NCBI GenBank assembly: GCA_025774555.1
Contig: JALGVT010000005.1
Span: 382-64,381, forward strand
From: a candidate division LCP-89 bacterium
Lineage (GTDB): Bacteria > Electryoneota > B3-LCP
Direction of reading: 5' to 3'
Length of the DNA stretch: 64,000 nucleotides
Within the stretch, counting starts at the first letter, position 1. Every line of letters begins with the position of its first letter. The position numbers and the translations under genes were made by a program. The notes under the pieces were generated by a model. That model was given only the letters and a program-made list of their open reading frames with translations. It did not search any database and was not told the DNA's origin. Of the stretch, positions 2,489 to 61,525 are shown piece by piece.

Positions 2489-4152
2489 TTAAGCATGGAG
2501 TAAAATGTCTGGTTTTGGCGCTGGATGGACTTGATCCCGACCTTTTTGTCCGTTTTAGAGACCAGATGCCAAATTTGTCCGCTCTGGCGGAGCAGGGTGT
2601 CTTCTGTCCCTTGAGGTCAACTACACCGCCTATGACATTTCCCGCCTGGTCAACCTGTCTCACGGGTGTAAATCCAGGGAAGCACGGGATTTTTGACTTC
2701 ACGGAGCGCATTACGGGTAAATACGGAGTGCGCTTTTTAAACTCCACACGCCGCCGTTATCCAACGTTTCTGCGAATATTGTCCGAAAGAGGATTTCGTG
2801 TGGGGTCAATTGGATTGCCGACGACCTATCCACCCGAACAATTGTCTGCTTTTCAAATTTCCGGATTCGACACGCCTTTGCCATCTAAAGCAGACTCATC
2901 CTACGTATATCCACCTGAATTATCGAAGGATATTGATAATGAGATGGGTGGTTATTATTTCGGTAACTTCAATGAAGGACGCATTGGACCAGCATGGCAT
3001 AAGAAGGTACTTAAGCAGTTATATCTAGGTGTTGATAGAAAAAAGAAACTCGTTAAATTTCTCGCAGAGCGTTTTCCGCTCGATTTACTCGTTCTGCATG
3101 TTGGTGAAACCGATACTGTGGGGCATCATTTCTGGTCGTTTTATGATCGGAAATCACCGAGGCACGTCGATAGAGGGGATTTAGATTTATCAGATGCCAT
3201 ATTAAATGTCTATCGCTCTGCTGATAAGCTTGCCGGTGATCTGCTTGATTTATTAGAACCCCGCTCTATTATAGTAGTCAGCGATCACGGGATGGGGGGG
3301 ACCTCGGACCGGATACTTTTCCTTAATAATTTCTTAGCCGAACATGGGTTTCTGCATTTTAGTGAAACCAGTGCACATACTGCAATAATAGGGAACCTGA
3401 AAAAGGCAGGGATGAAATGGATTCCTTATAGATGGCAGCAGACTCTATTTAAATTAGCTGACAGTAGAATCGCTTCAACAATTGAGTCAATTCAACGATT
3501 CTCCGGCATAGATTGGTCTAAAACCGTGGCATTTAGTGAAGAGTTGAATTACTTCCCGTCTATCTGGTTGAACGTCAAAGGGAGAGATCCTCGCGGAATC
3601 ATCACAGATAGCGATGTGGATTCCGTCATAAAGCGTATGAAATCAGCGCTTTATGATTGGAAATATCCCGATGATGGCTTGCCTGTTGTGAAGCAGGTAT
3701 ATCATCGGAATGAGATATACGAGGGCACCGAGATAGGCTGCGCCCCCGATTTGATATTAGAATTGAACAAACCGGAAGGTTATAGCTATGCTATGGGCAG
3801 AAGCAGTGCTCAGCGTGGGGGAGAAACCTGTCGGAAACTTACCCTGGATCAATATTTAGGGTACAAAGGCGAAACCATGAACGGCTCACACAGGCAGATG
3901 GGAACGTTTATTGCGAAATCAGATAACAAGACTTTCAACGTACAAGATGACTTTTCACTCACAGATATTTCGCCGACTATTCTACACTTATTCGGACTGG
4001 ATAGAATTGATTGGATGGATGGTAAGAGTTGTCTTGCCGGTGAACAGGGGGTTATAAATTCTAATTTCATTACACCAGATAACTACAAATATTCTAACGA
4101 AGAAGAGAATCAAATCAGAGAACGTTTATCATCCCTTGGGTATTTAGAATAA
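2485..4152 (+). CDS. Alkaline-phosphatase-superfamily type I phosphodiesterase / nucleotide pyrophosphatase-like protein
   Basis: N-terminal LVLALDGLDPDLF metal-ligand motif and VVSDHGMGG motif are typical of the NPP/AlkP-like family. Translationally coupled to the upstream gene. Confidence 0.65.
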   Translation: MIKHGVKCLVLALDGLDPDLFVRFRDQMPNLSALAEQGVFCPLRSTTPPMTFPAWSTCLTGVNPGKHGIFDFTERITGKYGVRFLNSTRRRYPTFLRILSERGFRVGSIGLPTTYPPEQLSAFQISGFDTPLPSKADSSYVYPPELSKDIDNEMGGYYFGNFNEGRIGPAWHKKVLKQLYLGVDRKKKLVKFLAERFPLDLLVLHVGETDTVGHHFWSFYDRKSPRHVDRGDLDLSDAILNVYRSADKLAGDLLDLLEPRSIIVVSDHGMGGTSDRILFLNNFLAEHGFLHFSETSAHTAIIGNLKKAGMKWIPYRWQQTLFKLADSRIASTIESIQRFSGIDWSKTVAFSEELNYFPSIWLNVKGRDPRGIITDSDVDSVIKRMKSALYDWKYPDDGLPVVKQVYHRNEIYEGTEIGCAPDLILELNKPEGYSYAMGRSSAQRGGETCRKLTLDQYLGYKGETMNGSHRQMGTFIAKSDNKTFNVQDDFSLTDISPTILHLFGLDRIDWMDGKSCLAGEQGVINSNFITPDNYKYSNEEENQIRERLSSLGYLE

Positions 4153-4156
4153 AATA

Positions 4157-5392
4157 ATGATAAAGCGGTTAAAAATAGCTATGGTTGCGGCTTGTCCGTT
4201 TCCAACCTCCCAGGGATCGCAGGTATTGATACGCGAGCTTTCCGAAGCCTTAGTTCGCAGAGGACACGAAGTTCACATTGTTACCTACCATTTCGGCGAG
4301 AATATCCCTTGTAAAGGGATGATTATCCATCGCATACCGGAATTCTTCCCGTACAGTAAGTTTCGTTCTGGTCCTGAAATTCGCAAGCCTTTGCTTGATT
4401 TACAGTTATCTTATAAACTCAATCAGGTTGTGAAAGAACATGGCGTCGATATAATGCACTGCCACAATTATGAAGCGCCCGTTGCCGCTTTTCCGGTGCG
4501 CTTTCTGCGCGGTATTCCGGTTGTCTATCACAGCCATAATACTATGTCGGACGAATTTTACACCTACTTCCGGCTGAAGATACCACAGATACTAGCTCGT
4601 GGAGCTGCGCATTTAATGGATCGTTATATACCCCGCCGCGCTGACTTCGTCATCGCTATAAATCGTAGTGTTGCAGATTTTTTGATACAGTCTGGAACGC
4701 CGCCTGATCGAGTTAAATACATCCCTCCCGGAATTGATTATGGTGATCAGGTTTCTGTGGATGAAGCTATGCTGCGGCAGAAGTATAACCTCGGTGAAGG
4801 CCCGTTGATTATCTATTCTGGCAATCTTGATGGATATCAAAGAATGGATATACTTTTAAAATCACTTCCTGATGTTGTTAAATCACATAATTCGACCAGA
4901 TTAGTTATATTAACGAGTTCCGATGCAGATGCGTTCTTGAAATATGCAGAGGAACAAAAGGTCGGCAAGTATATCTGTCTGATTAAAAGCCCCGGATTCG
5001 ATGTTGTAAAGCAATTGTATAAAATAGGCACGCTTGCTGTAAATCCAAGAATTTCATGGTCTGGTTTTCCGATAAAGCTATTGAACTATATGGCTGCAGG
5101 ATTACCGATAGTGGCTTTTCATGGCGCAGCGCCTTCTGTTCTGCACGGTTCTACTGGACTGCTTGCCCCAGCAGGTAACAGCGATTTATTTGGAAAACAT
5201 ATCTGCAGACTGATTGAATCGCCCGAGTATGCTGAATCAATTGGTAATAAAGCGAAAGGGACCGTGAAGGAACATTACTGTTGGGATAGTATAGCTAACG
5301 ATATTGAACAGGTTTATGCCAAAATACTGAACCTGAAAATATTCGCAGAGATAGAAACAAACAAAGCCGAATCCATGCGAGTTGCTATCTGA
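4157..5392 (+). CDS. Glycosyltransferase family 4 (GT-B, group 1)
   Basis: GT1-type C-terminal domain (..LIIYSGNLDGYQRMD.., ..GLPIVAF..GA..). Only 4 bp downstream of the previous gene. Confidence 0.75.
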   Translation: MIKRLKIAMVAACPFPTSQGSQVLIRELSEALVRRGHEVHIVTYHFGENIPCKGMIIHRIPEFFPYSKFRSGPEIRKPLLDLQLSYKLNQVVKEHGVDIMHCHNYEAPVAAFPVRFLRGIPVVYHSHNTMSDEFYTYFRLKIPQILARGAAHLMDRYIPRRADFVIAINRSVADFLIQSGTPPDRVKYIPPGIDYGDQVSVDEAMLRQKYNLGEGPLIIYSGNLDGYQRMDILLKSLPDVVKSHNSTRLVILTSSDADAFLKYAEEQKVGKYICLIKSPGFDVVKQLYKIGTLAVNPRISWSGFPIKLLNYMAAGLPIVAFHGAAPSVLHGSTGLLAPAGNSDLFGKHICRLIESPEYAESIGNKAKGTVKEHYCWDSIANDIEQVYAKILNLKIFAEIETNKAESMRVAI

Positions 5393-5564
5393 TACACATT
5401 TAAATTATGACCGATATGGTGATTTGAATTTCTACTGACAGATCATGGTATTTTTTGTAATGTTTAGAAATTAAAATATTTATCTTGACTTTTCGGAATA
5501 ATTAGTTTAATTTAGTATAATGGATAGAAGTACTGATACAGTGATTTAATCGAGGCATCCATCG

Positions 5565-9952: not shown

Positions 9953-11953
9953 ATGAAGAAGAACATCCTGATTATCATTTTATTGGCGGGGGCGCTAGTC
10001 CGTATCTTCTATCTCGCCAGTATATGGAATACGCCTTTAGCAAACGTCCCCATTATCGACTCTGAATACTACCACACCTGGGCAGCCGCAATGGCGTCAG
10101 GAGTAAGTGGGGTTGAGGGTGTTTTCTTCATGAGTCCGCTCTATCCATATTTTCTCAGTTTGCTCTATAATCTATTCGGAGCAGTTCCGCATGTTGCGCT
10201 GATCTCGCATCTTATAATCGGTGTTCTACTTATCTTCCTCGTATATCTTCTCGGTAGAAGGATGTTTTCAGAGAATGCGGGTCTAATCAGCGCATTTCTC
10301 TGCGCTTTTTACATGCCGTTTATTTATTATGAAGGTATGATTTTAAGCGCCACACTTATTTTAGCCATCAATGCGTTAGTGCTCCTGCTCTTATTAAATC
10401 CAAATAAGGCAGTATGGCGGGAAATAGCCACCGGTTTTTTAATCGGTTTATCGGCTATGGCGAGACCGAATATACTGCTGTTTGCATTGCTGCTGATATT
10501 ATTTTATCTACTCTATCCTGCAAAGAGGGACTTACGGCGTGTGCTTCTTCTTTCAGTCGGTATAGCGATCATTCTAATCCCCATTGGGTATAGAAATCAC
10601 AGGATTGGCGGTGAGTGGATCTGGACTACGACGGGCGTTGGAATGAATTTTTACGCCGGTAATAATCCATCAGCCGAGGGAATATATTGGGAGGCGCCTT
10701 TTCTTCATTCAGCAGAGCCTCAATACGAGAATGAAGATTATCGAATGCAAGCCTCGCTGAATACAGGTCGTGAAATGACCGTTAATGAAGCATCTAAGTA
10801 TTGGCTCACGCGGGGAATTTCCTATATTTACAACCAGCCTGGCTCATATTTAAGGCTGTTATTAAAAAAATCCTTTCTCTTCTTTCATAATACGGAAATA
10901 CCTAATAATTTGAGCATCTACGCTGCTTTGGAGTTCAGTTCTGTCTTGCGACTGATTCCCTTCACTTTTGCGTTAATTGCTCCTATAGCTTTTGCAGGCT
11001 GGCTGTTTTTTAGAAGAAAATCGGGAATTGAAATAGTTCATCTCTATGGATTGAGTTATTTTACAGCGACTCTTTTCTTCTTTGCGGCATCGGAATATCG
11101 GTTGCCGATAGTTATCGTTCTGCTGCCTTTTGCTGGAAAGTTGCTGACCCAGTTAGTTAGTTACTTGAAGAATACAGAATGGGCTGCTATATTGAGGACT
11201 GTTTTATATGTGGTCGTTTTTGCTATCCCAATAAATATGCCCACCGGCTTCACGAAAAACCTTCAATCCAGCCGCATGGATTACTATAACCTTGGCAGCG
11301 TGCTGGAAAAACAGATGCGCTTTGAAGAGGCGTCTGAGATGCTGCAGCGTTCGCTCTTAATTGACCCGAGCTTTATTGAAGCGCATCGTGCTCTGGGGGA
11401 TTCCTATCATGCTTTAGGCATGCGCCAAGAAGCAGCCAGGGAATTTTCACTCGCAGGGGTGGATCCGAAACCGGAACTTTTGTTACTCGATGCCGAAGAG
11501 CAGATATTTGAAGCGCATTCTAAAGCAATGATGGGAGACTTAACGGGCGCGCTCAAAGCCTACGGGGAAGCAGTAGCAGCGCATCCTGATCCACCCGCAT
11601 ATGCATATTATAACATGGCTTATCTGGCGCTGCAATTGGGGGATACCCTCAGAGCAATGGATGAGATAAACATAGCCGCAGAAATTGAACCAGATGAACC
11701 GCAGATAGAATATCTAATCGGCTGGATTAACGAATGCAGGAATATGTGGAAGGAAGCGAACGATCATTATCTTTTCGCATTGCAGAAAAGACCGAACTTT
11801 CATAAGGCGCGCATTCAAAGCGCGAGGATGTACATTAGAATGGGAAATGCGGAGAAAGCTGCTGTAATGATAGAGCCTCTAATCGGAGTTCAACTTGATA
11901 ATGAGGAGATGTATAACGAAGTATTAGAAATTGCACGTGAGGTCGGGTACTAA
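9953..11953 (+). CDS. Glycosyltransferase family 39 (ArnT/PMT-like) membrane protein with C-terminal TPR repeats
   Basis: Start at the ATG at 9953 (MKKNILIIILLAGALV). The ORF-track start at 9848 overlaps the upstream terminator. More than ten hydrophobic helices typical of GT-C/GT39, then TPR repeats (..EASEMLQRSLLIDPSFIEAHRALGDSY..). Confidence 0.7.
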   Translation: MKKNILIIILLAGALVRIFYLASIWNTPLANVPIIDSEYYHTWAAAMASGVSGVEGVFFMSPLYPYFLSLLYNLFGAVPHVALISHLIIGVLLIFLVYLLGRRMFSENAGLISAFLCAFYMPFIYYEGMILSATLILAINALVLLLLLNPNKAVWREIATGFLIGLSAMARPNILLFALLLILFYLLYPAKRDLRRVLLLSVGIAIILIPIGYRNHRIGGEWIWTTTGVGMNFYAGNNPSAEGIYWEAPFLHSAEPQYENEDYRMQASLNTGREMTVNEASKYWLTRGISYIYNQPGSYLRLLLKKSFLFFHNTEIPNNLSIYAALEFSSVLRLIPFTFALIAPIAFAGWLFFRRKSGIEIVHLYGLSYFTATLFFFAASEYRLPIVIVLLPFAGKLLTQLVSYLKNTEWAAILRTVLYVVVFAIPINMPTGFTKNLQSSRMDYYNLGSVLEKQMRFEEASEMLQRSLLIDPSFIEAHRALGDSYHALGMRQEAAREFSLAGVDPKPELLLLDAEEQIFEAHSKAMMGDLTGALKAYGEAVAAHPDPPAYAYYNMAYLALQLGDTLRAMDEINIAAEIEPDEPQIEYLIGWINECRNMWKEANDHYLFALQKRPNFHKARIQSARMYIRMGNAEKAAVMIEPLIGVQLDNEEMYNEVLEIAREVGY

Positions 11954-31896: not shown

Positions 31897-32033
31897 AAGG
31901 GGCTGTCCCAAAAGAAGAATATCTCGTCATTACGAGGAACGTAGAGACATGGTAATCTCTTATATTACAAACTATTAAAGATTGCCACACTTCATTCGCA
32001 ATGACAGTTCTAAGGCTTTTGGTACAGCCCCTT
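31897..32033. repeat. Palindromic MITE-like intergenic repeat, copy A
   Basis: Terminal inverted repeats AAGGGGCTGTCCCAAAAG ... CTTTTGGTACAGCCCCTT with inner inverted blocks GTCATTACGA / CAATGAC and TGGTAATCTCTTA / AGATTGCCAC. Homologous to the element at 36782-36920. Confidence 0.7.
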
Positions 32034-32069
32034 GGTTTTTCCTGCTATTCCATCATTGAATGCTTTAAA

Positions 32070-32936
32070 TTACCGCCCTGTTCGCGGGGTTTCGAGGTAT
32101 TTGAACAGAGGTGAATCCGAACTGATAACAAGTGAAGTGCCCTCTTTCAAAGACTTATTATACAGTTCCAGGCTGCGAAGAAACGCGTAAAACTCGGGGT
32201 CCTTGTTGAAGGCATTGGCGTATATTTTGATTGATTTTGCGTCGCCTTCGCCGCGGATTATTTCGCTTTTACGCTGAGCTTCAGCGATAATGATTGTCTT
32301 ATCCTTATCAGTTGTAGCTTTAATCTTCAACTGTTCCTCAGCTCCTTCACTGCGGTATCGCTTGGCAATTCTATGACGTTCAGCACGCATTCTGGCGTAA
32401 ATACTTTCCGCAATTTCAACCGGGAAATCGGTCCTCTTAATGCGGACGTCCACGATTTCAACGCCAAATTCCTTGCCTTTCTCTTTAGTAATTGCCTGAA
32501 CATCATTCATTATAGGTTCGCGTTTTTCGGTGATAATTTCTGATTGGTTGTGAGAAGCGACCGCTTCACGCAGTGCTGAAGAGATAATCGCGTCTAACCG
32601 CGCATTGGCTCTCGGCATGTCTCGCAAAGTTTCATAGAATACTCGCGGATCTACAATCTTATAACGTGAATACGCGTCAACCACGAGTGTTTTTTTGTCT
32701 TTGGTGAGGAATTCGGCGATCGGAGCGTCATAACGTAACAATCGTTTTTCGTAAGTCGTAATTGACTGTATGAACGGTAGTTTAGCGTGGAGTCCGGGAT
32801 TCCGAACCTCCTTAACGAAACGACCGAGTTGGATGATTATTATCTGCTTGGTTTCATCGACTGTATAGAAAGCATCAGTAACCAGGATGAATGCAACTAA
32901 AGCTGCGACGATGTATATCAGTGTCTTCTTTTTCAT
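32070..32936 (-). CDS. hflC: Protease modulator HflC (SPFH/band-7)
   Basis: N-terminal TM helix, SPFH domain. Follows hflK with an ATGA overlap. Confidence 0.8.
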   Translation of the reverse strand: MKKKTLIYIVAALVAFILVTDAFYTVDETKQIIIIQLGRFVKEVRNPGLHAKLPFIQSITTYEKRLLRYDAPIAEFLTKDKKTLVVDAYSRYKIVDPRVFYETLRDMPRANARLDAIISSALREAVASHNQSEIITEKREPIMNDVQAITKEKGKEFGVEIVDVRIKRTDFPVEIAESIYARMRAERHRIAKRYRSEGAEEQLKIKATTDKDKTIIIAEAQRKSEIIRGEGDAKSIKIYANAFNKDPEFYAFLRSLELYNKSLKEGTSLVISSDSPLFKYLETPRTGR

Positions 32937-33985
32937 GGCTGTCCTCCTTTTTGTGCATCGGCAAGAGGTATCGCTGAACCGAGATCACCCAGCGGTAGAA
33001 GAGGAAGAGTTTTCCCTGCAACTTCAGGTGAAATCACTATCTTATTTACTTTGGACAGGACCTCCTGCATCGTCTCGAGGTAGAGCCTGCGACGCGTTAC
33101 GTCTTTCGCCATTCGATATTCCTTCAGCATAGCAAGAAAGCGCGCTGCGTCACCCTGAGAGATTCTGATTTTGCTTTCCATGTATGCCTCTGCTTCGCGA
33201 AGCATCTGTTCAGCCTCACCGCGTGCTTTCGGAAGGATATCCTCTTTATAGGCTTCCGCTTCATTGATGATGCGTTCGCGATCTTCCTTGGCGCTGACAA
33301 CATCTTTAAAAGCGGCCTGTACCTGCTCAGGAGGATCGACTGCCTGGAGTTTTACGGCGGTAATCTGGAGACCGGTTTGATATAGATCCATCAGTTGCTG
33401 CAGGTGAACCCGTGTGTCTTCCTGTACCTTTGCTCTGCCTGTCGTGAGAATGTCATCTATCATCATGCTGCCAACAACGCCGCGCAGAGCCGTTTCTGCG
33501 GCATCTTTCAGCGTTCGTTGATCGGCGACGCCCTCCGGATCCCAGACCTTAAACAGATAATCCGGGAGATTGCTGATTCGGTACTGAACTACAACCCTGA
33601 TATTCACGAGGTTTTCATCGCCGGTGATCATAAGGGATTCTACCGGGTAAGATTTTATTCGGGGAGGAGGTCCCGGATGTATTGTCCGGAATCCCAGTTC
33701 CATACTCCGAATCTGTTCGACTTTGACAACGTCAACCTGCTCGAAAGGTCGAGGTATATGCCAGTGAGGGCCAGAATCCGCAGTAGAGGTCATCTTACCG
33801 AACCGTCGCACGACACCCATCTCGCCGGGATCAACAATGTATATTCCGGTTAACAGCCAGATGATGAAAATCGCGCCGACCAAGTAAAACAGCATTCGTC
33901 CGGTACCCTGACCGAGGAATTTCTCCTTCAATTGATTGAGAATATCCCCATCAAAAAGCTCCTCTATTGATTTGTCCATGGGCAA
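32933..33985 (-). CDS. hflK: Protease modulator HflK (SPFH/band-7)
   Basis: TM helix, SPFH domain (..VVRRFGKMTSTADSGPHWHIP..), C-terminal coiled coil. Operon with hflC. Confidence 0.8.
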   Translation of the reverse strand: MPMDKSIEELFDGDILNQLKEKFLGQGTGRMLFYLVGAIFIIWLLTGIYIVDPGEMGVVRRFGKMTSTADSGPHWHIPRPFEQVDVVKVEQIRSMELGFRTIHPGPPPRIKSYPVESLMITGDENLVNIRVVVQYRISNLPDYLFKVWDPEGVADQRTLKDAAETALRGVVGSMMIDDILTTGRAKVQEDTRVHLQQLMDLYQTGLQITAVKLQAVDPPEQVQAAFKDVVSAKEDRERIINEAEAYKEDILPKARGEAEQMLREAEAYMESKIRISQGDAARFLAMLKEYRMAKDVTRRRLYLETMQEVLSKVNKIVISPEVAGKTLPLLPLGDLGSAIPLADAQKGGQP

Positions 33986-34280
33986 CTCCTATCTTTTATG
34001 TTTTATTGCTATTTAATTCTACAATATGACACACAGAATGGACATTATCAAGAAATATATGAATTGAATGCTATCGCAAAATGAACCCGCCATGATAGAA
34101 ATACTACAGGAGGATATGTACTGAAATGATACATTGTTAGATGTATCCTCACAGTTTAAGACATATAACTGCGTATATGTTGAAGCGAATCCGCTTACGA
34201 GCTGATGGTATAAATATTGCTTTAATAAATCTGATAAATTCGTTATAATAAACGTGTCAATGAAATATCAGGGCGAGATT

Positions 34281-35837
34281 ATGAGACAATTCATTGTATT
34301 ATCTCTGCTGTGCGTTGCTGCTATGATAGCGCATGCTGAAACAAATGATCTCTTTCAGCAGGCATGGGACTTGAATTGGCGTGGGGAACATGCTGCCGCG
34401 GTCAGTGGATACGAGCAGTTTGCATCAGATAACGTTGGACAGACGCTCGCGCCCGTGGCGCTGTTTAACGCGGCAAGCATTACAATGGTGGAAATGGGAG
34501 ATATTGATGCCGCCAGAATGAAATTTAAGGAATTAACTGAAACCTATCCCGGAACAAAATGGACGGCTGACTCATATCGGAGACTGGCGGAGATTGCGCT
34601 CGAAAAAGGTGATATCAAGGTAGCAGTCGATAATTATAAACTCGGCTTGAAAAACTATCGCGGCGAAGATTTCGAAATGCCTGACGTATGGGTGACTGAG
34701 ATGATTGACGGTTGTAGAGATAATCTGGTTGCCATCGATGATCCAGGTTATTCAGTAATTGTGTATGAGGATGTCCTCGCATTCATCCCTCATGGCAGTA
34801 TCTTTGCTGAAACCCAGTACAACCTCGCTGGCGCTCTAAAATCATTAGGACGGAATGAAGAAGCTGCCGATAAGATGTGTTTTCTCCTGTATAATTACGC
34901 CGCGTTTCCAATATCAGCAACTGTGATGGCAGAAGAACGCGAGTTTATCTCTGAGTATGTCGAGCTTCCTTGGGGAGATATCGAAAAGATGAACCTGATT
35001 CAGGGGCTTTTTCAACAGTCCGATTACGATCAGGTGGAACAGATATTCAGCGAAGTAAGAGAAAACAACCCCGACACGCCTCTCGACGATAGATGTCAAT
35101 ACGGTTTGATCATAACCAATGTGTATAGAAGCGGCGATTTCAAAACTGCTCTGGATAATATAGAAGATCTGCTGGCAAAGTTTCCTGAAAGTGGTTGGAG
35201 TAATCAGGCACGAAACAACATTGGATTCTGGGAGGAGGCACAGAGTTTAAAAGACAGATTAAAACTCGAACCAGATGATTATTCGACTCATGTAAGCTTA
35301 GGATACAGGCTGCTGCGCAACCGGTTCAATGAACAGGCAGAAGAGCATTTCTTAGTTGCCACAGCCGATACCACGTCCGATGCCGCGTATATGGGGCTGG
35401 GTTATACCTATCTGAGAAGCGGGCGCGTTGATGATGCGATAAAAGCATTTGACAAGTTTCTTGAGAGCAGTCCCGATGATGGAAACGTGTATAATCAGGT
35501 TGGTTATGCCTACATCGGACAGGGACAGCCTGAAGAGGCACTTAGATACTTTGAACGCTATCGTGAACTGGAGCCGGATAATCCAAATTCGCACGACAGT
35601 TATGCGGAATGTTTGATGAATCTGGAAAGGTACGAGGAAGCCATTGCGGAATACAAACGGGCGATTGAACTTAATCCCGGCTTCACCAACCCGTATTTCA
35701 TGTTGGGCGAAATCTATAATCGAACCGGCGACACTGAAAGGGCTTTGAAATACTACCAGCAATACATTGATAGCGATCCGAACGGATTCCAAAGTGCAAG
35801 CGCCCGGGAAAACGTACAGAATCTTACCAAGCAATAG
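34281..35837 (+). CDS. Secreted TPR-repeat protein
   Basis: Start at MRQFIVLSLLCVAAMIAHA (signal peptide). Multiple TPR motifs (..AIKAFDKFLESSPDDGNVYNQVGYAY.., ..AIAEYKRAIELNPGFTNPYFMLGEIY..). Confidence 0.6.
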   Translation: MRQFIVLSLLCVAAMIAHAETNDLFQQAWDLNWRGEHAAAVSGYEQFASDNVGQTLAPVALFNAASITMVEMGDIDAARMKFKELTETYPGTKWTADSYRRLAEIALEKGDIKVAVDNYKLGLKNYRGEDFEMPDVWVTEMIDGCRDNLVAIDDPGYSVIVYEDVLAFIPHGSIFAETQYNLAGALKSLGRNEEAADKMCFLLYNYAAFPISATVMAEEREFISEYVELPWGDIEKMNLIQGLFQQSDYDQVEQIFSEVRENNPDTPLDDRCQYGLIITNVYRSGDFKTALDNIEDLLAKFPESGWSNQARNNIGFWEEAQSLKDRLKLEPDDYSTHVSLGYRLLRNRFNEQAEEHFLVATADTTSDAAYMGLGYTYLRSGRVDDAIKAFDKFLESSPDDGNVYNQVGYAYIGQGQPEEALRYFERYRELEPDNPNSHDSYAECLMNLERYEEAIAEYKRAIELNPGFTNPYFMLGEIYNRTGDTERALKYYQQYIDSDPNGFQSASARENVQNLTKQ

Positions 35838-35861
35838 ATCGAATAATCTGACGGAGGATAT

Positions 35862-36767
35862 ATGGCAATCACTAGAAGAGAATTTATAAAAGGCGGGTTG
35901 GGAATTGCTTCGGCGGCAACAGTTGCATCTGCGCCATTTCATCCCTTAATCACATATTCCGCAGGTTTATCACTAACACCTGATGTTATGGTTACTTCTG
36001 GTGATTCACCTGCTAAAAATGTCCGTAAGGTTATCGAAGCGTTGGGAGGTATAGAGAAATTCGTCAAACCAGGAGATAGAGTCTTCTTGAAGCCTAACAG
36101 CATTTCGCCAATGGGTCCTGAGTATGCGGTGAATACTAATCCTGATGTGGTTGCGGAAGTGGCGAGACTATGCAAAAAGGCGGGCGCATCCAAGATTTTA
36201 GCAATTGCTCATGATGATCCCGGAAGCTGGGTGGCAAATGGTATTGGCGATGCGATCAATGCTCACGATGGTGTTCTGGGCACCGCGGATAATATCGAAA
36301 TGTATCAGCAGGTCAATATCCCGATGGGAATGATTTTAAGAGAAACAGCCGTGATTAAGGAATTCCTGGAATATGATGTTTTCATCAATCTGCCGGTCGC
36401 TAAGCATCATGGTGGTGCGCAACTAACGCTCGGGATGAAGAACTATATGGGATTAAATTGGGATCGTCAAATTATGCACAGGACGGATCTGGATCAGACA
36501 ATCGCCGACCTGGTAACTGTGCGCAGACCGGATCTGACCATTGTTGACGCCACCAGAATGCTGTTGAACAACGGACCCAGTGGACCGGGCACGGTACGTG
36601 AAGTTAAGAGCGTTGTAGCATCAACGGATATAGTAGCAGTCGATGCTTATACTGCAACGCTTTTTAAGCATGAGCCTCGTGAAATCAGACACATTCGCTA
36701 TGCTGCGGAAATGGGACTTGGAGAGATGGAAGTCAAGAAGATGAATATCGTAAAACTAACATCCTGA
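35862..36767 (+). CDS. Tat-signal DUF362-family protein
   Basis: Twin-arginine signal MAITRREFIKGGLGIASAATVASA. DUF362-type ..GDRVFLKPN.. core. GGAGG ribosome-binding site upstream. Confidence 0.6.
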   Translation: MAITRREFIKGGLGIASAATVASAPFHPLITYSAGLSLTPDVMVTSGDSPAKNVRKVIEALGGIEKFVKPGDRVFLKPNSISPMGPEYAVNTNPDVVAEVARLCKKAGASKILAIAHDDPGSWVANGIGDAINAHDGVLGTADNIEMYQQVNIPMGMILRETAVIKEFLEYDVFINLPVAKHHGGAQLTLGMKNYMGLNWDRQIMHRTDLDQTIADLVTVRRPDLTIVDATRMLLNNGPSGPGTVREVKSVVASTDIVAVDAYTATLFKHEPREIRHIRYAAEMGLGEMEVKKMNIVKLTS

Positions 36768-36781
36768 TAGAAGTATTCAGA

Positions 36782-36920
36782 AAAAGGGGCTGTCCCAAAA
36801 GTCTATAAACTGTCATTACGAACGAAGTGTGGTAATCTCTTAGTGCTTGTATAATAGGAGATTGCCACGTCACTTCGTTCCTCGCAATGACGTTGCTTTC
36901 TTCTTTTGGGACAGCCCCTT
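36782..36920. repeat. Palindromic MITE-like intergenic repeat, copy B (near-perfect palindrome)
   Basis: AAAAGGGGCTGTCCCAAAAG..GTCATTACGAACGAAGTGTGGTAATCTCTTA..AGATTGCCACGTCACTTCGTTCCTCGCAATGAC..CTTTTGGGACAGCCCCTTT. Sits between convergent genes and could fold into a very long hairpin serving as a bidirectional terminator. Confidence 0.7.
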
Positions 36921-43663: not shown

Positions 43664-46333
43664 TTATTTCAAGTAGACTGCTTTACGGCTTAACGTCAAG
43701 CCTGACGAGGTCAGGTTGATGATGTAAATTCCCGAAGATATCTGATTGTCTGCCTGCCAGGTCCAGAAACTTCTGCCAGCGGGCGCTCTATTCTGATGCA
43801 TAGCGGCAATACGCTCTCCCTGAATGTTGAATATCTCTATTTCAACCGGAGCAGATTGTGGTAAATCATAAGCAATTCTAAGCTGCGAATTGAAGGGATT
43901 GGGGTAGGGAAGATGCAGCGCCATTTTACTGGGTATTTGGTTTTCATCGGGCATTTCAACTGGAATTATTCCAAACTCTTCAAACATCATACTTAACAGG
44001 TCATAACGTGTGTTACCCGATGAGGTGGAATCGTTGATGCCTTCGATGCCGAAGCAGCAGTAGAACAGATCGCTGACGGCAGTCTGCACGCGCACTCCGG
44101 CGAGTTCATCGGGATTTTCTTGACGATAGATGAAGGTCGGTTCTGACCCGACCGGAAGCGCGGTAATGACGTCCATAGAATACTGATTCCAGGCGCCGCC
44201 GCTGCCAGCCATCACAAAATACAAATCTTCGGTCAAGGGATTCCCTTCGATTCCTCTGACGGTGAGTATCTCGGCGTGAGGCGCTAAATAGCTTACTCTG
44301 AAGATGTTCGTCAGAATAGAAGGCTGGCTTACCGATAAATCCTCGGCAACGTTTTGCCCAGTAACTATCATTTTTCCCCCGGAATCCAAGTATTCGTCAA
44401 GGTCATCCCAGTCGCCAGCCGGGAAGATATTCGTCTCCGCTGTGCCCGAGAAGTGGATTACCGCCTCATATTCCATCAATTCCGTTCCGAGAATTTCGCG
44501 GTCATTCCGTTTCCATGTTTCACTGGTGTAGCCGATTTGATCTAAAGCATCTTCATAGTAGATAGATGTGTTCTCTTCATTGTTCTGGTCAGCGTCTATA
44601 ATTAGAATCTGTGCTCTACCTACAGGTATCTGAAGGATTTGAGAATAATTAAAGCTATCACCGGTAATTTGAGCTTCCACTTCGATAATCTCGAAGTCAT
44701 CGTCTCCCTGCTGGACATTGATCACAAACGGCTCGGCGCTGTTATCTCCGACTTGTCCTTGAATCAGATTGCCTGCGTAGTGGTTTGATTGCGTGAAACT
44801 GACTGCTGGGTTTGAGCTGCTGACCGTGATGTTGACATTGTTTGCGGTATCGAAGAATTTGTGATACTGCACAAATAGCGACCCATCTTGATTAAACAGG
44901 AGGCGGTCGCCACCCTGCCCGTTGTCAACCCAAATTGAATCAATAGTGACAAATAGATCAACAGCCTTAGCGGCATTTAGACGTCCGCCGCCCATCATGC
45001 CGACATAGCCGGGATTCTGAGTATCTATATTGTCAGCAGTCCAATACAACCAAGAACTTACGTCAGCGATGCCCCATTCAGGTTTTAAGGATTTGACAGA
45101 AGCGGCAACTCCGGCAGTGACAGGTGTTGCCATTGAGGTGCCGCTCATACTGCCGTAACCTTCTATCAGAGTGGACTTGATACCGTCTCCCGGCGCGCAT
45201 ACTGTTATCCACGTTCCATAGTTTGTGAAGTCAGCCAGCACATCTCCCGGAGCCGTCGCCGCAACAGCAATTACGAAGTCATAGCCGGCAGGGTACTGGA
45301 TACTGCTTGATGCATCGTTTCCAGCCGCTGCAATAGGGATCAAACCGTAATTGCTTGCCATTTCCAGAGTAGCGCTGAAATAAGGCACAACGCCGGGACC
45401 TCCGAAACTCATAGAGAGCACTTCAGCGTCCATATCGACGGCATAATAGACAGCCTGCATGGCAGCATACAGATCGACATATCCCATTCCGCTCGATGAT
45501 AAATATCCAGCGCGCAGCGCCATAATCTGGCAGTCGAATCCCGGTGATGCGACTCCGATACCGTTATTTGTCACTGCGCAGGCGTCTCCGGCGCAGTGTG
45601 TGCCATGCCCGTCGAAATCTGAAGGATCATTATCGGGCGGACCCGGGTCTTCGCCGGGCCAGACGGCAGATGAATCCAGATCAATCCAGTCCCAGCCCCA
45701 GAAATCGTCAATATAACCGTTGCCGTCGTTGTCGATGCTGTCAATCTCAGAAGGCTCTATGAAGCGGTTGTTATTTAAATCTTCACCCGAGTTCATCCAT
45801 ATATTAGCAGATAGGTCAGGATGCAGATAGTTCACGCCGCCGTCTATGATAGCAACCTGAACGTCAGAAGAGCCTCTGTGAATTGCCCAGGCAGCCGGCG
45901 TCTGAATCGCCTCAATGTGCCACTGTCCCGGAATCAGCATATCATCCGGATTGAACTTCAGTTCATCCCAGGGAACCAACACAGAAGGCCAGGCATTCTT
46001 CGTGCCCTGCCATGATTTCAGTTGCGCTATAGCATCTTCAACACTGACCTCGGACGGAAAAGATACTAAGTATAGTTCAGGATAGTGCCGCTGCGCCGAT
46101 TGAATTAAAGTTTCAGCGGATATTCCCACCAGAATCGCATCCAGATCGGCGTCACCTGTGTACACTTCGCCGTTATTTAATTGCTGGGGCGAAGTGAGTA
46201 GAGGCTGTACCATTTCAAGGACAACTTTGCCCGATCTGACAGTATTCCATTCGAATGCGGATTCGATATCATCGGCAACGGCGCTCATGCCTAAAAAGCA
46301 GACAAGCGCCGTTGCAAGGAGAATGTTTTTCAT
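43664..46333 (-). CDS. Subtilisin-like S8 serine peptidase with T9SS C-terminal sorting domain
   Basis: Catalytic triad motifs VAIIDGGV (Asp), DGHGTHCAG (His), GTSMATP (Ser). CTD ..LPYPNPFNSQLRIAYDLP..IEIFNIQGERIA..GIYIINL..VYLK. Confidence 0.85.
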   Translation of the reverse strand: MKNILLATALVCFLGMSAVADDIESAFEWNTVRSGKVVLEMVQPLLTSPQQLNNGEVYTGDADLDAILVGISAETLIQSAQRHYPELYLVSFPSEVSVEDAIAQLKSWQGTKNAWPSVLVPWDELKFNPDDMLIPGQWHIEAIQTPAAWAIHRGSSDVQVAIIDGGVNYLHPDLSANIWMNSGEDLNNNRFIEPSEIDSIDNDGNGYIDDFWGWDWIDLDSSAVWPGEDPGPPDNDPSDFDGHGTHCAGDACAVTNNGIGVASPGFDCQIMALRAGYLSSSGMGYVDLYAAMQAVYYAVDMDAEVLSMSFGGPGVVPYFSATLEMASNYGLIPIAAAGNDASSSIQYPAGYDFVIAVAATAPGDVLADFTNYGTWITVCAPGDGIKSTLIEGYGSMSGTSMATPVTAGVAASVKSLKPEWGIADVSSWLYWTADNIDTQNPGYVGMMGGGRLNAAKAVDLFVTIDSIWVDNGQGGDRLLFNQDGSLFVQYHKFFDTANNVNITVSSSNPAVSFTQSNHYAGNLIQGQVGDNSAEPFVINVQQGDDDFEIIEVEAQITGDSFNYSQILQIPVGRAQILIIDADQNNEENTSIYYEDALDQIGYTSETWKRNDREILGTELMEYEAVIHFSGTAETNIFPAGDWDDLDEYLDSGGKMIVTGQNVAEDLSVSQPSILTNIFRVSYLAPHAEILTVRGIEGNPLTEDLYFVMAGSGGAWNQYSMDVITALPVGSEPTFIYRQENPDELAGVRVQTAVSDLFYCCFGIEGINDSTSSGNTRYDLLSMMFEEFGIIPVEMPDENQIPSKMALHLPYPNPFNSQLRIAYDLPQSAPVEIEIFNIQGERIAAMHQNRAPAGRSFWTWQADNQISSGIYIINLTSSGLTLSRKAVYLK

Positions 46334-52866: not shown

Positions 52867-52903
52867 AGGGGCTGTCTTAAAAGCAATTGAGACAGCCCCT
52901 TTT
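52867..52903. repeat. Short hairpin copy of the GGGGCTGTC palindromic repeat; likely terminator of the C25 peptidase gene
   Basis: GGGGCTGTCT-TAAAAGCAATTG-AGACAGCCCC followed by TTTTAATTT. An upstream GTCATTAAGTC resembles the inner block of the long copies. Confidence 0.55.
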
Positions 52904-58858: not shown

Positions 58859-61525
58859 TTACTTCAAGATGACCATTTTTCGAGTCTCAGAGAAATTCTC
58901 TGATTCCAAACGGTAGATGTAAATTCCGCTTGCGAGTGATGCACCGTTGAAAGTTTGAGTGTAGCTGCCAGCAGGTAGATGAGTGTCCAGCAGGGAAGCC
59001 ACTTTTCTGCCTGAAAGATCGAAGACGGACAGTTTCACTATGCCCGATGAAGGCAGGCTGAAAGCGATCTCCGTCGTTGGATTGAACGGATTTGGATAGT
59101 TCTGTCCGAGGTTATAGTCTTCAGGCGCTCTTGTGCTTGATCCATGATCTGTAACCGGTACAAAATCAAACCAATTGAGGATGCTAGTAATGATCTCTTC
59201 TCGAGTAGTAGATCCAATCCCGGATACTGCTTCCAGACAGAACGGCAGGTACACCAGATCGCTGTTAGCGCCCGACCAACGTATTCCAGCGCCGTCACCA
59301 GAAGGAATGTACTCGAATATTAAACTTGCGTCATCAAGCGCGTCGATAGTTGCTGGTGACTGGCTGTTTTGAGCGCCGCCGGCGCCGAAAAGCAGCATGG
59401 TAAAACCGTTTGTGATTGGATCACCATCGATTCCGGTCACTTGAAGGCCCGTTGTTCCCGAGGTCGATGACGCGTGGAGGACGTCCGAATAGAATGAACT
59501 CCCCGCCATCTGTTCATCAATGTTTTCACCAATCAGTAGGAGCTGACCACCATTATTTAGGAAATCAGTTATCAGAGTCTCTTCACCAGCGCTGATGGGA
59601 TCATCAGCATTAGATGTGTGCCAGAAGACTATAGGGTAAAGAGCCAGTTCTGTATCTGTGATTGCTCCGTTCTCATAGACATCCCAGACGTCAGGCTGTA
59701 CTCCAAGAGCACGCAGGTCTTGATCGTACCAGGTGTGATAGGTTGACTCTTCATCGTCAGAAATAATGACGATGGGCGGACGACCGATCATCTGAACGAT
59801 CTCTTCAACCAGTGTGATGTCATAGACCGGTTCATGCATAGTAAGGGTAAATGTTACGTCATGTGCGTATGACAACGGATCAATAGTGAACTGAAGCGGA
59901 TCGCTGTGATTGTTCACTGTGGATGACTGTGGAATGTCACCGAGACTGTTTGTCCCGTTGATAATAGTAACGTCTGGATCATCACATTCGAGAGTGAGTT
60001 CGACACTGTTTGCGCCAACGGAAAGCGAAGCATTCTCCACAGTTACCAGCAGATCGACCGTCTCACCAGGGTCGGGGCGACCATCTCCATTTCCAGCGCT
60101 ATCATCAAAGGAATTATCGGAAATTGCAAGATTGGGGAACATGGAGGAGATGGCGGCTCCGGCATCAATTCTACCCCATCCGAGAAGACCAGCGTAACCG
60201 GGATTCAAATCGTCTATATTCACACAGGTGAAGTAGATTTGATATTCGACCGCCTCATTAGTCATCGTCGGATCGGCAGCCCAGATCATCAGAGCAAGTC
60301 CTGCCGCAATAGGTGTGGACATCGACGTCCCCTGAGTGCTCTGGTAAATGTTACCAACCATAGTGCTGAAGATATCGACACCGGGAGCGCATATATCAAT
60401 CATAGTGCCGTAATTGCTGAATCCTGCTTTATGATCGTTCTGGTCTGTGGCTGCTACATTGATGACGTCGTTATAGCAGGAAGGATAATGAATAGCGGAA
60501 TTGCCGTCGTTCCCCGCAGATCCAAAGAAGAGGACGCCGTCTAGATAGCCGTTGGTGATTATATTCTGTTCGTAGGCGGAATAACCTGGACCGCCATAAG
60601 ACATGGATATCACATTAGCGCCGTTTTCTATGCAGTAGCTGATGCCCTGCGTCCCTGCATAGATCAGTTCATTGCCCACACGAGCAGGCATGATTTTGGC
60701 TGAGCAGCCGAGGCTGGCAATACCCACAACATTATCCGTGACTGCATTGGCGTCTCCGGAGCAATGGGTTCCGTGTCCGCCGTCAGGAGGATCCTGGATA
60801 TTATTATTATTATACCAGAGGTTCCAACCCCAGAAATCATCCACGAAGGAGTTGTTATCATCATCGATGCCGTTCCATTCCATAGGTTCGATGATGCCGT
60901 TTCCGTTCAGATCTTCACCGGGATTGACCCACAGATTTGCCTTTAGGTCATCATGGAGAGTATCAACACCTGAATCCACAATGCCTATGATAAGATCGGA
61001 GCTGCCCAAAGTATAATCATAGGCGATTTCCGCTCCCACTTTCGACATTGCCCATTGTGTATTGAAGTAGGTGTCGCTGGGGATATAATCGGATTTCCGG
61101 ATAAGGTAAGGTTCGGCGGTTACGATCTCGGGGAGCTTTTCGTATTCACCAATAACCTCATGCAGATCAACCTCATAAGGAAATTCGAGGATATAATACC
61201 TTGAAATATCGGTCTTATAAGATTCAGCCGGTTTTTCTGACCAGGGGATTAACTTGGATATATTCATCACGTTGAACCTGGCTGCTAATGCGTCGAGTTT
61301 GTCATTCCCGAGAAGCGCCAATCCGTCTTTAGATTCCACATTAATGGTTCCAAGGTCGTCAGATAGGAAAACAACAATCCGTCCCTCCCATTCATAATTT
61401 TCCGTCATAGGGGGCGAAAAAACTGCAAACGCGCTCGATACCATGAGAACTGCAGTTATAATGCTAAGCAGCGGGAGATTGCGGGATATCATGATTATGC
61501 CTCTTTGAAAGTAATTCTGTAACAC
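58859..61525 (-). CDS. Subtilisin-like S8 serine peptidase with CARDB-like and flavodoxin-like modules and T9SS C-terminal domain (paralog of 43664-46333)
   Basis: Triad motifs IVDSGVD (Asp), GGHGTHCSG (His), GTSMSTP (Ser). CTD ..LGQNYPNPFNPTTEIAFSLP..VKLSVFDLSGRKVASL..GIYIYRL..MVILK. Confidence 0.85.
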   Translation of the reverse strand: MLQNYFQRGIIMISRNLPLLSIITAVLMVSSAFAVFSPPMTENYEWEGRIVVFLSDDLGTINVESKDGLALLGNDKLDALAARFNVMNISKLIPWSEKPAESYKTDISRYYILEFPYEVDLHEVIGEYEKLPEIVTAEPYLIRKSDYIPSDTYFNTQWAMSKVGAEIAYDYTLGSSDLIIGIVDSGVDTLHDDLKANLWVNPGEDLNGNGIIEPMEWNGIDDDNNSFVDDFWGWNLWYNNNNIQDPPDGGHGTHCSGDANAVTDNVVGIASLGCSAKIMPARVGNELIYAGTQGISYCIENGANVISMSYGGPGYSAYEQNIITNGYLDGVLFFGSAGNDGNSAIHYPSCYNDVINVAATDQNDHKAGFSNYGTMIDICAPGVDIFSTMVGNIYQSTQGTSMSTPIAAGLALMIWAADPTMTNEAVEYQIYFTCVNIDDLNPGYAGLLGWGRIDAGAAISSMFPNLAISDNSFDDSAGNGDGRPDPGETVDLLVTVENASLSVGANSVELTLECDDPDVTIINGTNSLGDIPQSSTVNNHSDPLQFTIDPLSYAHDVTFTLTMHEPVYDITLVEEIVQMIGRPPIVIISDDEESTYHTWYDQDLRALGVQPDVWDVYENGAITDTELALYPIVFWHTSNADDPISAGEETLITDFLNNGGQLLLIGENIDEQMAGSSFYSDVLHASSTSGTTGLQVTGIDGDPITNGFTMLLFGAGGAQNSQSPATIDALDDASLIFEYIPSGDGAGIRWSGANSDLVYLPFCLEAVSGIGSTTREEIITSILNWFDFVPVTDHGSSTRAPEDYNLGQNYPNPFNPTTEIAFSLPSSGIVKLSVFDLSGRKVASLLDTHLPAGSYTQTFNGASLASGIYIYRLESENFSETRKMVILK

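Follow-up and report, generated by a model that had tools for sequence, protein, structure and literature searches.

Two composite palindromes at gene 3' ends

We analysed a 64,000-nucleotide stretch of DNA (the window) from a candidate division LCP-89 bacterium, contig JALGVT010000005.1, in which two palindromic repeat elements of 137 nt, here called A and B, lie beside genes for a Band_7 (HflK/HflC-like) pair, a Fer4 protein, a DUF362 protein and a PorV-like protein. A adjoins the 3' end of the hflC-like Band_7 gene and B lies between the convergent DUF362 and PorV-like genes, in agreement with an earlier reading made from the letters and without database searches (the sequence-only reading), which had described two long copies of a repeat at gene 3' ends. 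Its coordinates for A stand; B is present as well and starts at 36784, the 36782 given earlier having taken in two additional A's.

Each element is built in three layers. Outermost is a G+C-rich palindrome (GGGGCTGTCCCAAAAG / CTTTTGG(G/T)ACAGCCCC) followed by T-rich sequence; within it are non-pairing spacers of about 8-11 nt; innermost are two inverted hairpin units around an 18-nt central loop, each unit with an unpaired 5' CGTC or TGTC tag that points outward. A covariance model trained on 49 units, all from other organisms, found four units in the window and no more; their E values run from 1e-7 to 1e-5, and nothing else scored below E = 3. The features, with the model's matches in brackets, are as follows.

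31897-32033, no strand: composite element A, 137 nt; an outer palindrome and spacers around two hairpin units with outward tags
31897-31914, +: left outer arm of A, AAGGGGCTGTCCCAAAAG
31925-31959, +: unit A1, long type; CGTC tag, ATTAC, GA, GGAACGTAGAGAC, ATG, GTAAT, CTC (match 31922-31962, +, 32.2 bits, E = 9e-6)
31978-32006, -: unit A2, short type; TGTC tag, ATTGC, GA, ATGAAGT, GTG, GCAAT, CTT (match 31975-32009, -, 32.1 bits, E = 1e-5)
32016-32033, +: right outer arm of A, CTTTTGGTACAGCCCCTT, then GGTTTTT
36784-36920, no strand: composite element B, 137 nt; opposite to A, with an A-run on its left and TTTATTTTTAT on its right
36784-36801, +: left outer arm of B, AAGGGGCTGTCCCAAAAG
36811-36839, +: unit B1, short type; TGTC tag, ATTAC, GA, ACGAAGT, GTG, GTAAT, CTC (match 36808-36842, +, 35.6 bits, E = 1.4e-6)
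36858-36892, -: unit B2, long type with CGTC tag, CGTCATTGCGAGGAACGAAGTGACGTGGCAATCTC (match 36855-36895, -, 40.2 bits, E = 1e-7)
36903-36920, +: right outer arm of B, CTTTTGGGACAGCCCCTT

A repeat finder returned A and B as a single inverted pair, ungapped over 137 nt at 81% identity, and a four-way alignment placed them in opposite orientation, A+ aligning with B-, and showed an asymmetry of 6 nt in length that falls on the same side. The outer arms reported earlier (AAGGGGCTGTCCCAAAAG / CTTTTGG(G/T)ACAGCCCCTT) are in both copies, and the inner blocks GTCATTACGA, TGGTAATCTC, GAGATTGCCA and TCGCAATGAC were all found in them too; the sequence-only reading had missed the opposite orientation of the two elements, and also that these blocks make up a hairpin unit that crosses phyla and is not private to the source genome. 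Each copy combines one long unit (GGAACG.AG.GAC) with one short unit (A.GAAGT), the CGTC tag being carried by A1 and B2 and the TGTC tag by A2 and B1. Because an ATTAC/GTAAT unit stands beside an ATTGC/GCAAT unit in each copy, pairing is kept within the units, but pairing between them would meet an A.C mismatch and a G.T wobble. In A the A/T variant belongs to the long unit and in B to the short one, and it therefore occupies non-homologous positions in the two copies.

The long hairpins that had been expected of both copies were borne out by folding: RNA folding of both strands of A and B gave -53 to -74 kcal/mol (z -7 to -11), and DNA folding of their + strands gave -27 to -43 kcal/mol (z -6 and -11). 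A 16-mer of the outer arm had six matches in the window at up to three mismatches against 0.34 expected, a number reached in none of 100 shuffles. The outer-arm motif recurs, with 2 and 3 mismatches, at a site that had been taken for a shorter relative; the arm is all that this site has in common with A and B.

52867-52903, no strand: plain terminator-type hairpin, GGGGCTGTCTTAAAAG / CAATTGAGACAGCCCC + TTTT, between convergent open reading frames (ORFs); no inner unit

The window also holds a 60-nt direct repeat, at 45555-45614 and 60723-60782, with 72% identity.

Structure and strand of the hairpin unit

The unit, 29-35 nt long, has the consensus YGTC, ATTGC, GA, a variable distal hairpin, GNR, GCAAT and CTC, and its borders are marked by a sharp drop in conservation beyond YGTC and AATCT(C). 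The GTC of the tag is conserved at 97-98%, and the base preceding it, among 543 unique units, is mostly T (316) or C (175) and less often A (33) or G (19). The tail is C followed by TC (266 units), TA, TT, TG, CA (43) or CC. In an ungapped alignment of 49 units the basal stem ATTGC/GCAAT is invariant save for one covarying pair; over 693 unit occurrences, the window's four included, the covarying P1 pair is G/C in 511, A/T in 32, G/T in 9 and A/C in 6, so that the compensated A/T form is commoner than either single change.

The distal hairpin spans 4-48 nt and mostly ends in a 3-nt loop. All six pairs of its stem covary: 117 double changes were counted where shuffles give 35, none of 500 shuffles was as high, and controls in which the 49-unit alignment was slid out of register gave far lower values than the true register. 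Compensatory variants also occur on one and the same contig, as in two of the fetched loci, which are given here by L number: AGCCACGCAGTGGCT and AGCCATGCAATGGCT in L295, and GCCGTC..GACGGC and GGCGTC..GACGCC in L245. Consensus positions of the K-turn and loop-E motifs, compared by hand, do not fit the GA/GNR internal loop between the two stems.

Selection on the unit is strand-specific, because the sequence GNA accounts for 107 of 166 triloops and its reverse complement TNC for only a handful, and because, among internal stem mismatches, G.T occurs 11 times and A.C once (p = 0.006). Wobble pairs make up under 1-3% overall (about 3 of some 530 paired cells in the 49-unit alignment; 0.8% in the mismatch count), and GNRA and UUCG tetraloops are almost absent among the end loops. 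C-GNA-G triloops, for example GCGAAGC, form unusually stable DNA mini-hairpins, and for this reason we lean towards a conserved constraint that acts on the single-stranded DNA form of the unit rather than on RNA.

Unrelated subfamilies (L122, L171, L191, L194, L115, L095 and L146) repeatedly have one and the same mini-palindrome, TCCCGA...TCGGGA, as their distal hairpin, and in one marine subfamily the same composite bears either this hairpin or a 7-nt one. Such recurrence suggests an exchange of tips, or the insertion of hairpins into loops.

Occurrence across phyla, phages and plasmids

The pattern GTCATTRCGA-N(5-30)-TGGYAATCT was found at at least 120 loci in a species-genome collection, and a similar pattern at at least 120 loci in viral contigs. 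Among the matches listed, record titles name about 20 phylum-level groups, and cultured isolates are among the carriers. Isolates with the unit include Lacinutrix venerupis DSM 28755, Leeuwenhoekiella marinoflava DSM 3653, Helicobacter rodentium ATCC 700285 and Methylosinus trichosporium OB3b, the last on plasmid NZ_CP023738.1. The groups comprise Pseudomonadota (alpha, beta and gamma), Campylobacterota, Desulfobacterota and Thermodesulfobacteriota, Nitrospirota, Chloroflexota, Bacillota, Actinomycetota, Spirochaetota, Armatimonadota, Planctomycetota, Bacteroidota, Balneolota, Atribacterota, Aminicenantes, Elusimicrobiota, KSB1, Riflebacteria, Margulisbacteria, Melainabacteria-type lineages and several Patescibacteria (candidate phyla radiation). 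BLAST with the canonical 35-mer matched 7 phage records and 7 plasmids, and none of 5,426 E. coli genomes.

With two copies only in 64 kb, 4.75 kb apart, A and B might have been taken for one terminator that was duplicated locally or copied by gene conversion and that belongs to no family. The two copies differ at about a fifth of their positions, are inverted and have unrelated flanks, and the at least 120 loci found in each of the genome, metagenome and viral collections refute this explanation, to which we give practically no chance; in this the sequence-only reading, which had proposed a repeat family, was right.

Units of distant hosts can be identical. One 33-mer is common to Oscillospiraceae, Bacteroidales and Daviesbacteria, and a second to Chloroflexi, Bacteroidota and two gammaproteobacterial families; unit B2 of the window is 94-97% identical over 34-36 nt to units of Desulfomonilaceae, Bacteroidales, Oscillospiraceae, Daviesbacteria and viral contigs. 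The presence of identical 33-mers in Bacillota, Bacteroidota, Patescibacteria, Chloroflexota and Gammaproteobacteria, together with a hypervariable tip that stays paired through compensatory change, leads us to entertain, as a possibility of perhaps one in four, that the unit is the recognition hairpin of an enzyme or protein of very wide host range, different from a classical transposase gene flanked by its own repeats; the unit would then be a pan-bacterial 'nano-element' that also resides in phages.

Searches for a previous description returned nothing related. Rfam gave no match at gathering thresholds across the whole window, none at E up to 10 in the region of A, and none at E up to 5 for units in 18 loci and L084; domain models of Rickettsia palindromic elements (RPEs; NCBIfam/Pfam) gave 0 matches at E up to 10 in 8 translated segments. 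Full-text literature searches with 10-20-mers of the unit and the outer arm found primers and unrelated matches only, a literature lead to cyanobacterial 'small dispersed repeats' was fruitless, and we found no description of an interrupted-stem ATTGC unit in the literature searched.

Pairing and gene context of units

Close pairs of units are mostly arranged with tags outward (132, against 17 with tags inward and 24 in tandem). The distal hairpins of the two partners differ in 130 of the 132 tags-outward pairs and their lengths in 123, and both pairs in the window are of this kind, tags-outward with unequal partners. By crude gene calls, units are mostly intergenic, with a preference for unidirectional (87) or convergent (41) over divergent (16) neighbours, and solitary units favour the sense strand of neighbouring genes by 80 to 37 in three collections.

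In L114 (Daviesbacteria) an ATTGC unit at 3121-3149 (-) lies in frame inside ORF 2523..3425, where it encodes VIARSEATWQS within ...FVIARSEATWQSVF...; reading its translation, we labelled the product a prepilin-peptidase-like membrane protein. The in-frame unit resembles the Rickettsia palindromic elements in coding genes. A group of related phage contigs (L335, L296, L267, L256, L349 and L289) has sense-strand units behind the portal and major-capsid genes, an arrangement that looks like punctuation of the structural operon (gene names again read from translations).

A sense-strand bias fits an RNA role as well as a DNA role. The unit might thus be primarily a structured RNA motif of 3' untranslated or intergenic regions, a site for a conserved RNA-binding protein or RNase, conserved for its RNA function and not for mobility. 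The punctuated phage operons would suit such a motif, as would a conserved core with a variable, covarying distal helix and the tolerance of G.T over A.C. We nevertheless consider it rather improbable, since G.U pairs are almost absent, the loops are GNA triloops and not GNRA or UUCG tetraloops, some units lie in frame within coding sequence, inverted pairs leave one unit antisense in any transcript, and no Rfam family matches.

'Double-foot' forms, in which GTCATTGCGA pairs directly with TCGCAATGAC around a single hairpin, were seen in L171 (5040-5126), L121 and L213; a central deletion in a tags-outward dimer would leave this form, as has been proposed for repetitive extragenic palindromes (REPs; PMC6006769). 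Rickettsiales and Ruminococcus loci carry arrays of units, tandem or mixed, with a period of about 49 nt (L040 6264-6652, L050 738-1531 and L064 2494-2621), and within these arrays each unit has a different distal hairpin.

A conserved hairpin base, an unpaired central spacer, a terminal structure of variable length and selection on one strand only are also properties expected of folded single-strand recombination sites used by a tyrosine recombinase, like integron attC. The core of attC consists of GTT/AAC triplets, which by eye are absent from the unit consensus; units form tight pairs or arrays of short period, with no cassette-sized intervals, and no integrase is enriched nearby. We regard an attC-like role as highly improbable.

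Composite family, target sites and related genomes

Outer arm and unit together were matched at at least 120 loci in metagenome contigs, and separate contigs carry composites that are nearly identical even in their outer arms and spacers. Between subfamilies the arms differ, with matched changes on both sides, for example GAGGCTGTCTCAAAAG, GGGGCTGTCCAAAAAG and CAGGCTGTTGAAAAAG. None of the 233 units in the diverse genome set has an outer arm, which makes the arm a subfamily feature and not a part of the unit.

Small, non-coding, present in many copies and with inverted ends, A and B recall miniature inverted-repeat transposable elements (MITEs), the first label that they had been given. In its classical sense the label would make them deletion derivatives of an insertion sequence with a DDE transposase, mobilised by cut-and-paste, with the outer arms as terminal inverted repeats; their length of about 137 bp, the 16-18 bp arms, the near-identical copies on different contigs and the lack of 'empty' outer palindromes in the metagenome loci (none, against 42 filled) are in keeping with this. 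Yet the flanking direct repeats of 45 composites do not exceed a shuffled-partner control, so that there is no target-site duplication above background; no parent insertion sequence was seen, the inner module is shared across phyla without the outer arms, and the arms vary in a compensatory manner, as in a hairpin stem. We therefore think a classical MITE very unlikely. 'MITE-like' holds only loosely, and the arms are not the transposon terminal repeats of all units; the observation that no transposase lies nearby and the other option of the sequence-only reading, a REP-like structure, have both fared better, the latter in that the anatomy matches that of CGTC-tagged REPs, as set out below.

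Comparison with related genomes places the elements at terminator positions. Among named HflC homologues the closest, at 76% identity, comes from candidate division LCP-89. In the same organism from another sample (L361), A is at the same locus with 99.3% identity; in the relative L363 the spacer between hflC and the Fer4 gene is 135 nt long and contains the plain hairpin GGCGGATAcagTATCCGCC followed by TTTTT, whereas the window's spacer is 241 nt long and holds element A there; and the related genome L366 has units at different sites and a mosaic of REP-like hairpins. Since L361 has A, L363 has a plain terminator, L366 has units elsewhere and L362 has a CGTC unit of ATTCC type, elements are gained and lost, in terminator positions, between relatives at about 76% HflC protein identity. 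The L362 unit, at 11018-11075 in an LCP-89 relative (TGTCATTCCTGC...GCAGGAATCCA), has an inner hairpin, GCCCCTACGGGGC, which shows that stems of the classical CGTC-1-like kind, too, can enclose a distal hairpin. The L366 mosaic, at 5030-5430 downstream of hflC, resembles a bacterial interspersed mosaic element (BIME) and consists of a plain terminator, a GTAG-tagged hairpin (GTAGCCCACGCCCTTCAGGGCTGGGC, minus strand), one ATTCC-type unit and two ATTGC-type units.

B is flanked as AGAAAAA-GGGGCTGTCCC...GGGACAGCCCC-TTTATTTTTAT, an A-run before and a T-run after, and lies between convergent genes; A is followed by TTGGTTTTT on the + strand and by only TTGTTATAT on the - strand. A G+C-rich stem with a T-run, and an upstream A-run to serve the other direction, amounts on sequence grounds to the form of an intrinsic bidirectional terminator, and terminator function is plausible for A and B. 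What distinguishes them from ordinary terminators of this type is the roughly 100 nt of repeat nested in the loop; solitary units elsewhere, for their part, have no T-run.

Search for a mobilising enzyme

Clustering of neighbouring genes revealed no gene family enriched beside units, and no gene for a REP-associated tyrosine transposase (RAYT) flanked by the unit was seen in the fetched loci. A regular expression for HUH/Y motifs, combined with phmmer, found one Y1 transposase-like gene in these loci. This RAYT/IS200-like gene (L114, Daviesbacteria, 1824-2474; motifs NHFH and YIHLNP) is bracketed by a 33-nt hairpin, GATTACACCCCAAGGGTGTAATCGGAGGTT, at 1761-1795 and 2489-2523 in direct orientation. 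This hairpin has no YGTC tag, although its stem starts with ATTAC/GTAAT as the variant basal stem of the window does; as the flanking hairpins differ from the unit, we rejected this gene as the unit's transposase. ORFs between same-strand pairs of units were likewise rejected as transposases, being ordinary genes that include phage portal and capsid genes.

Discussion

The closest described relatives of the unit are the CGTC-tagged REPs, a superfamily that includes dRS3 of Neisseria and RPE-4 and RPE-6 of Rickettsia (Di Nocera, De Gregorio & Rocco 2013, PMC3733652). In these, the tag varies to TGTC (also CCTC), the stem begins with A-T and a 3-nt tail has the consensus CCA; tags-outward dimers, often heterodimers, are nested in longer palindromes for which no empty targets were found, and the repeats lie between unidirectional or convergent genes, with some in-frame gene insertions and no dedicated transposase (PMC3733652). 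The unit described here shares the unpaired CGTC/TGTC 5' tag and the opening A-T pairs; its predominant tags-outward, unequal dimers are likewise nested in longer palindromes; its intergenic sites are unidirectional or convergent, with occasional in-frame insertions; and in the fetched loci no dedicated transposase was found for it either. Its tail, C(T/C)N, has the same length and first base as CCA but a different consensus.

The four CGTC families described so far have continuous stems of 8-9 bp (ATTCC or ATCGCC) and loops of 4-5 nt, translate to VIPAKAGI, VIAGLDPAIH and VIPWLDHGI, and were reported from 5 phyla (PMC3733652). In contrast, the unit's distal hairpin is hypervariable, it translates to VIARSEATWQS and HCEERSDVAIS, and it occurs in some 20 phyla and in phages. 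By its anatomy it would be assigned to the CGTC/TGTC-tagged superfamily as an interrupted-stem family, most likely a new family of a known kind of element; it is none of the four described.

Other REPs offer parallels. Enterobacterial GTAG-3 REPs have, like the unit, a basal stem, non-complementary di- or trinucleotides and a self-complementary distal part of variable length. REP/BIMEs of the E. coli type and the Pseudomonas REPINs (REP doublets forming hairpins), which are GTAG-tagged and RAYT-associated, are also inverted doublets of unequal partners (Y and Z types); the unit differs from them in its YGTC tag, which is not GT[AG]G, and in the lack of a flanking RAYT gene beside units in the fetched loci.

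We consider it probable that A and B are REP/BIME-like (REPIN-like) non-autonomous repeats, nested in terminator-type palindromes, that have spread as hairpins. Each comprises two inverted units with outward tags, a long one and a short one, set into the loop of a G+C-rich palindrome with a T-run. The composite stands where an intrinsic terminator is called for and most likely terminates the hflC-like, DUF362 and PorV-like transcripts or stabilises their 3' ends, B presumably in both directions; roles of REP/BIMEs in termination and mRNA stabilisation are cited in PMC6006769. For propagation the tagged strand would fold into a single-stranded hairpin, most likely of DNA, and be handled by an enzyme encoded elsewhere, which may be a Y1/HUH-type transposase or one of another kind.

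Several results weigh against this account. Where the described CGTC families have continuous stems, the unit's basal stem (ATTGC/GCAAT) has 5 bp, followed by a GA/GNR internal loop, and its end loops are of 3 nt; single units fold weakly under nearest-neighbour parameters; and solitary units are biased to the sense strand. REPs are usually described as species-specific (PMC6006769), and simple REP biology does not explain a unit that is near-identical across phyla. A simple terminator scan does not call A or B, because their loop is above the limit of the scan, and no mobilising enzyme was found in the 64 kb of the source genome or in the short stretches around units fetched from other genomes.

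For annotation, A and B should be masked or annotated as repeats and not as small ORFs, their six-frame translations yielding strings such as HCEERSDVAIS, VIARNEVTWQS and ...LAMT. If the unit does have a partner of wide host range, such a partner would explain why CGTC-type REPs have no known transposase. A family so widespread and so conserved is a good handle, by phylogenetic profiling, on the enzyme that mobilises CGTC-type REPs.

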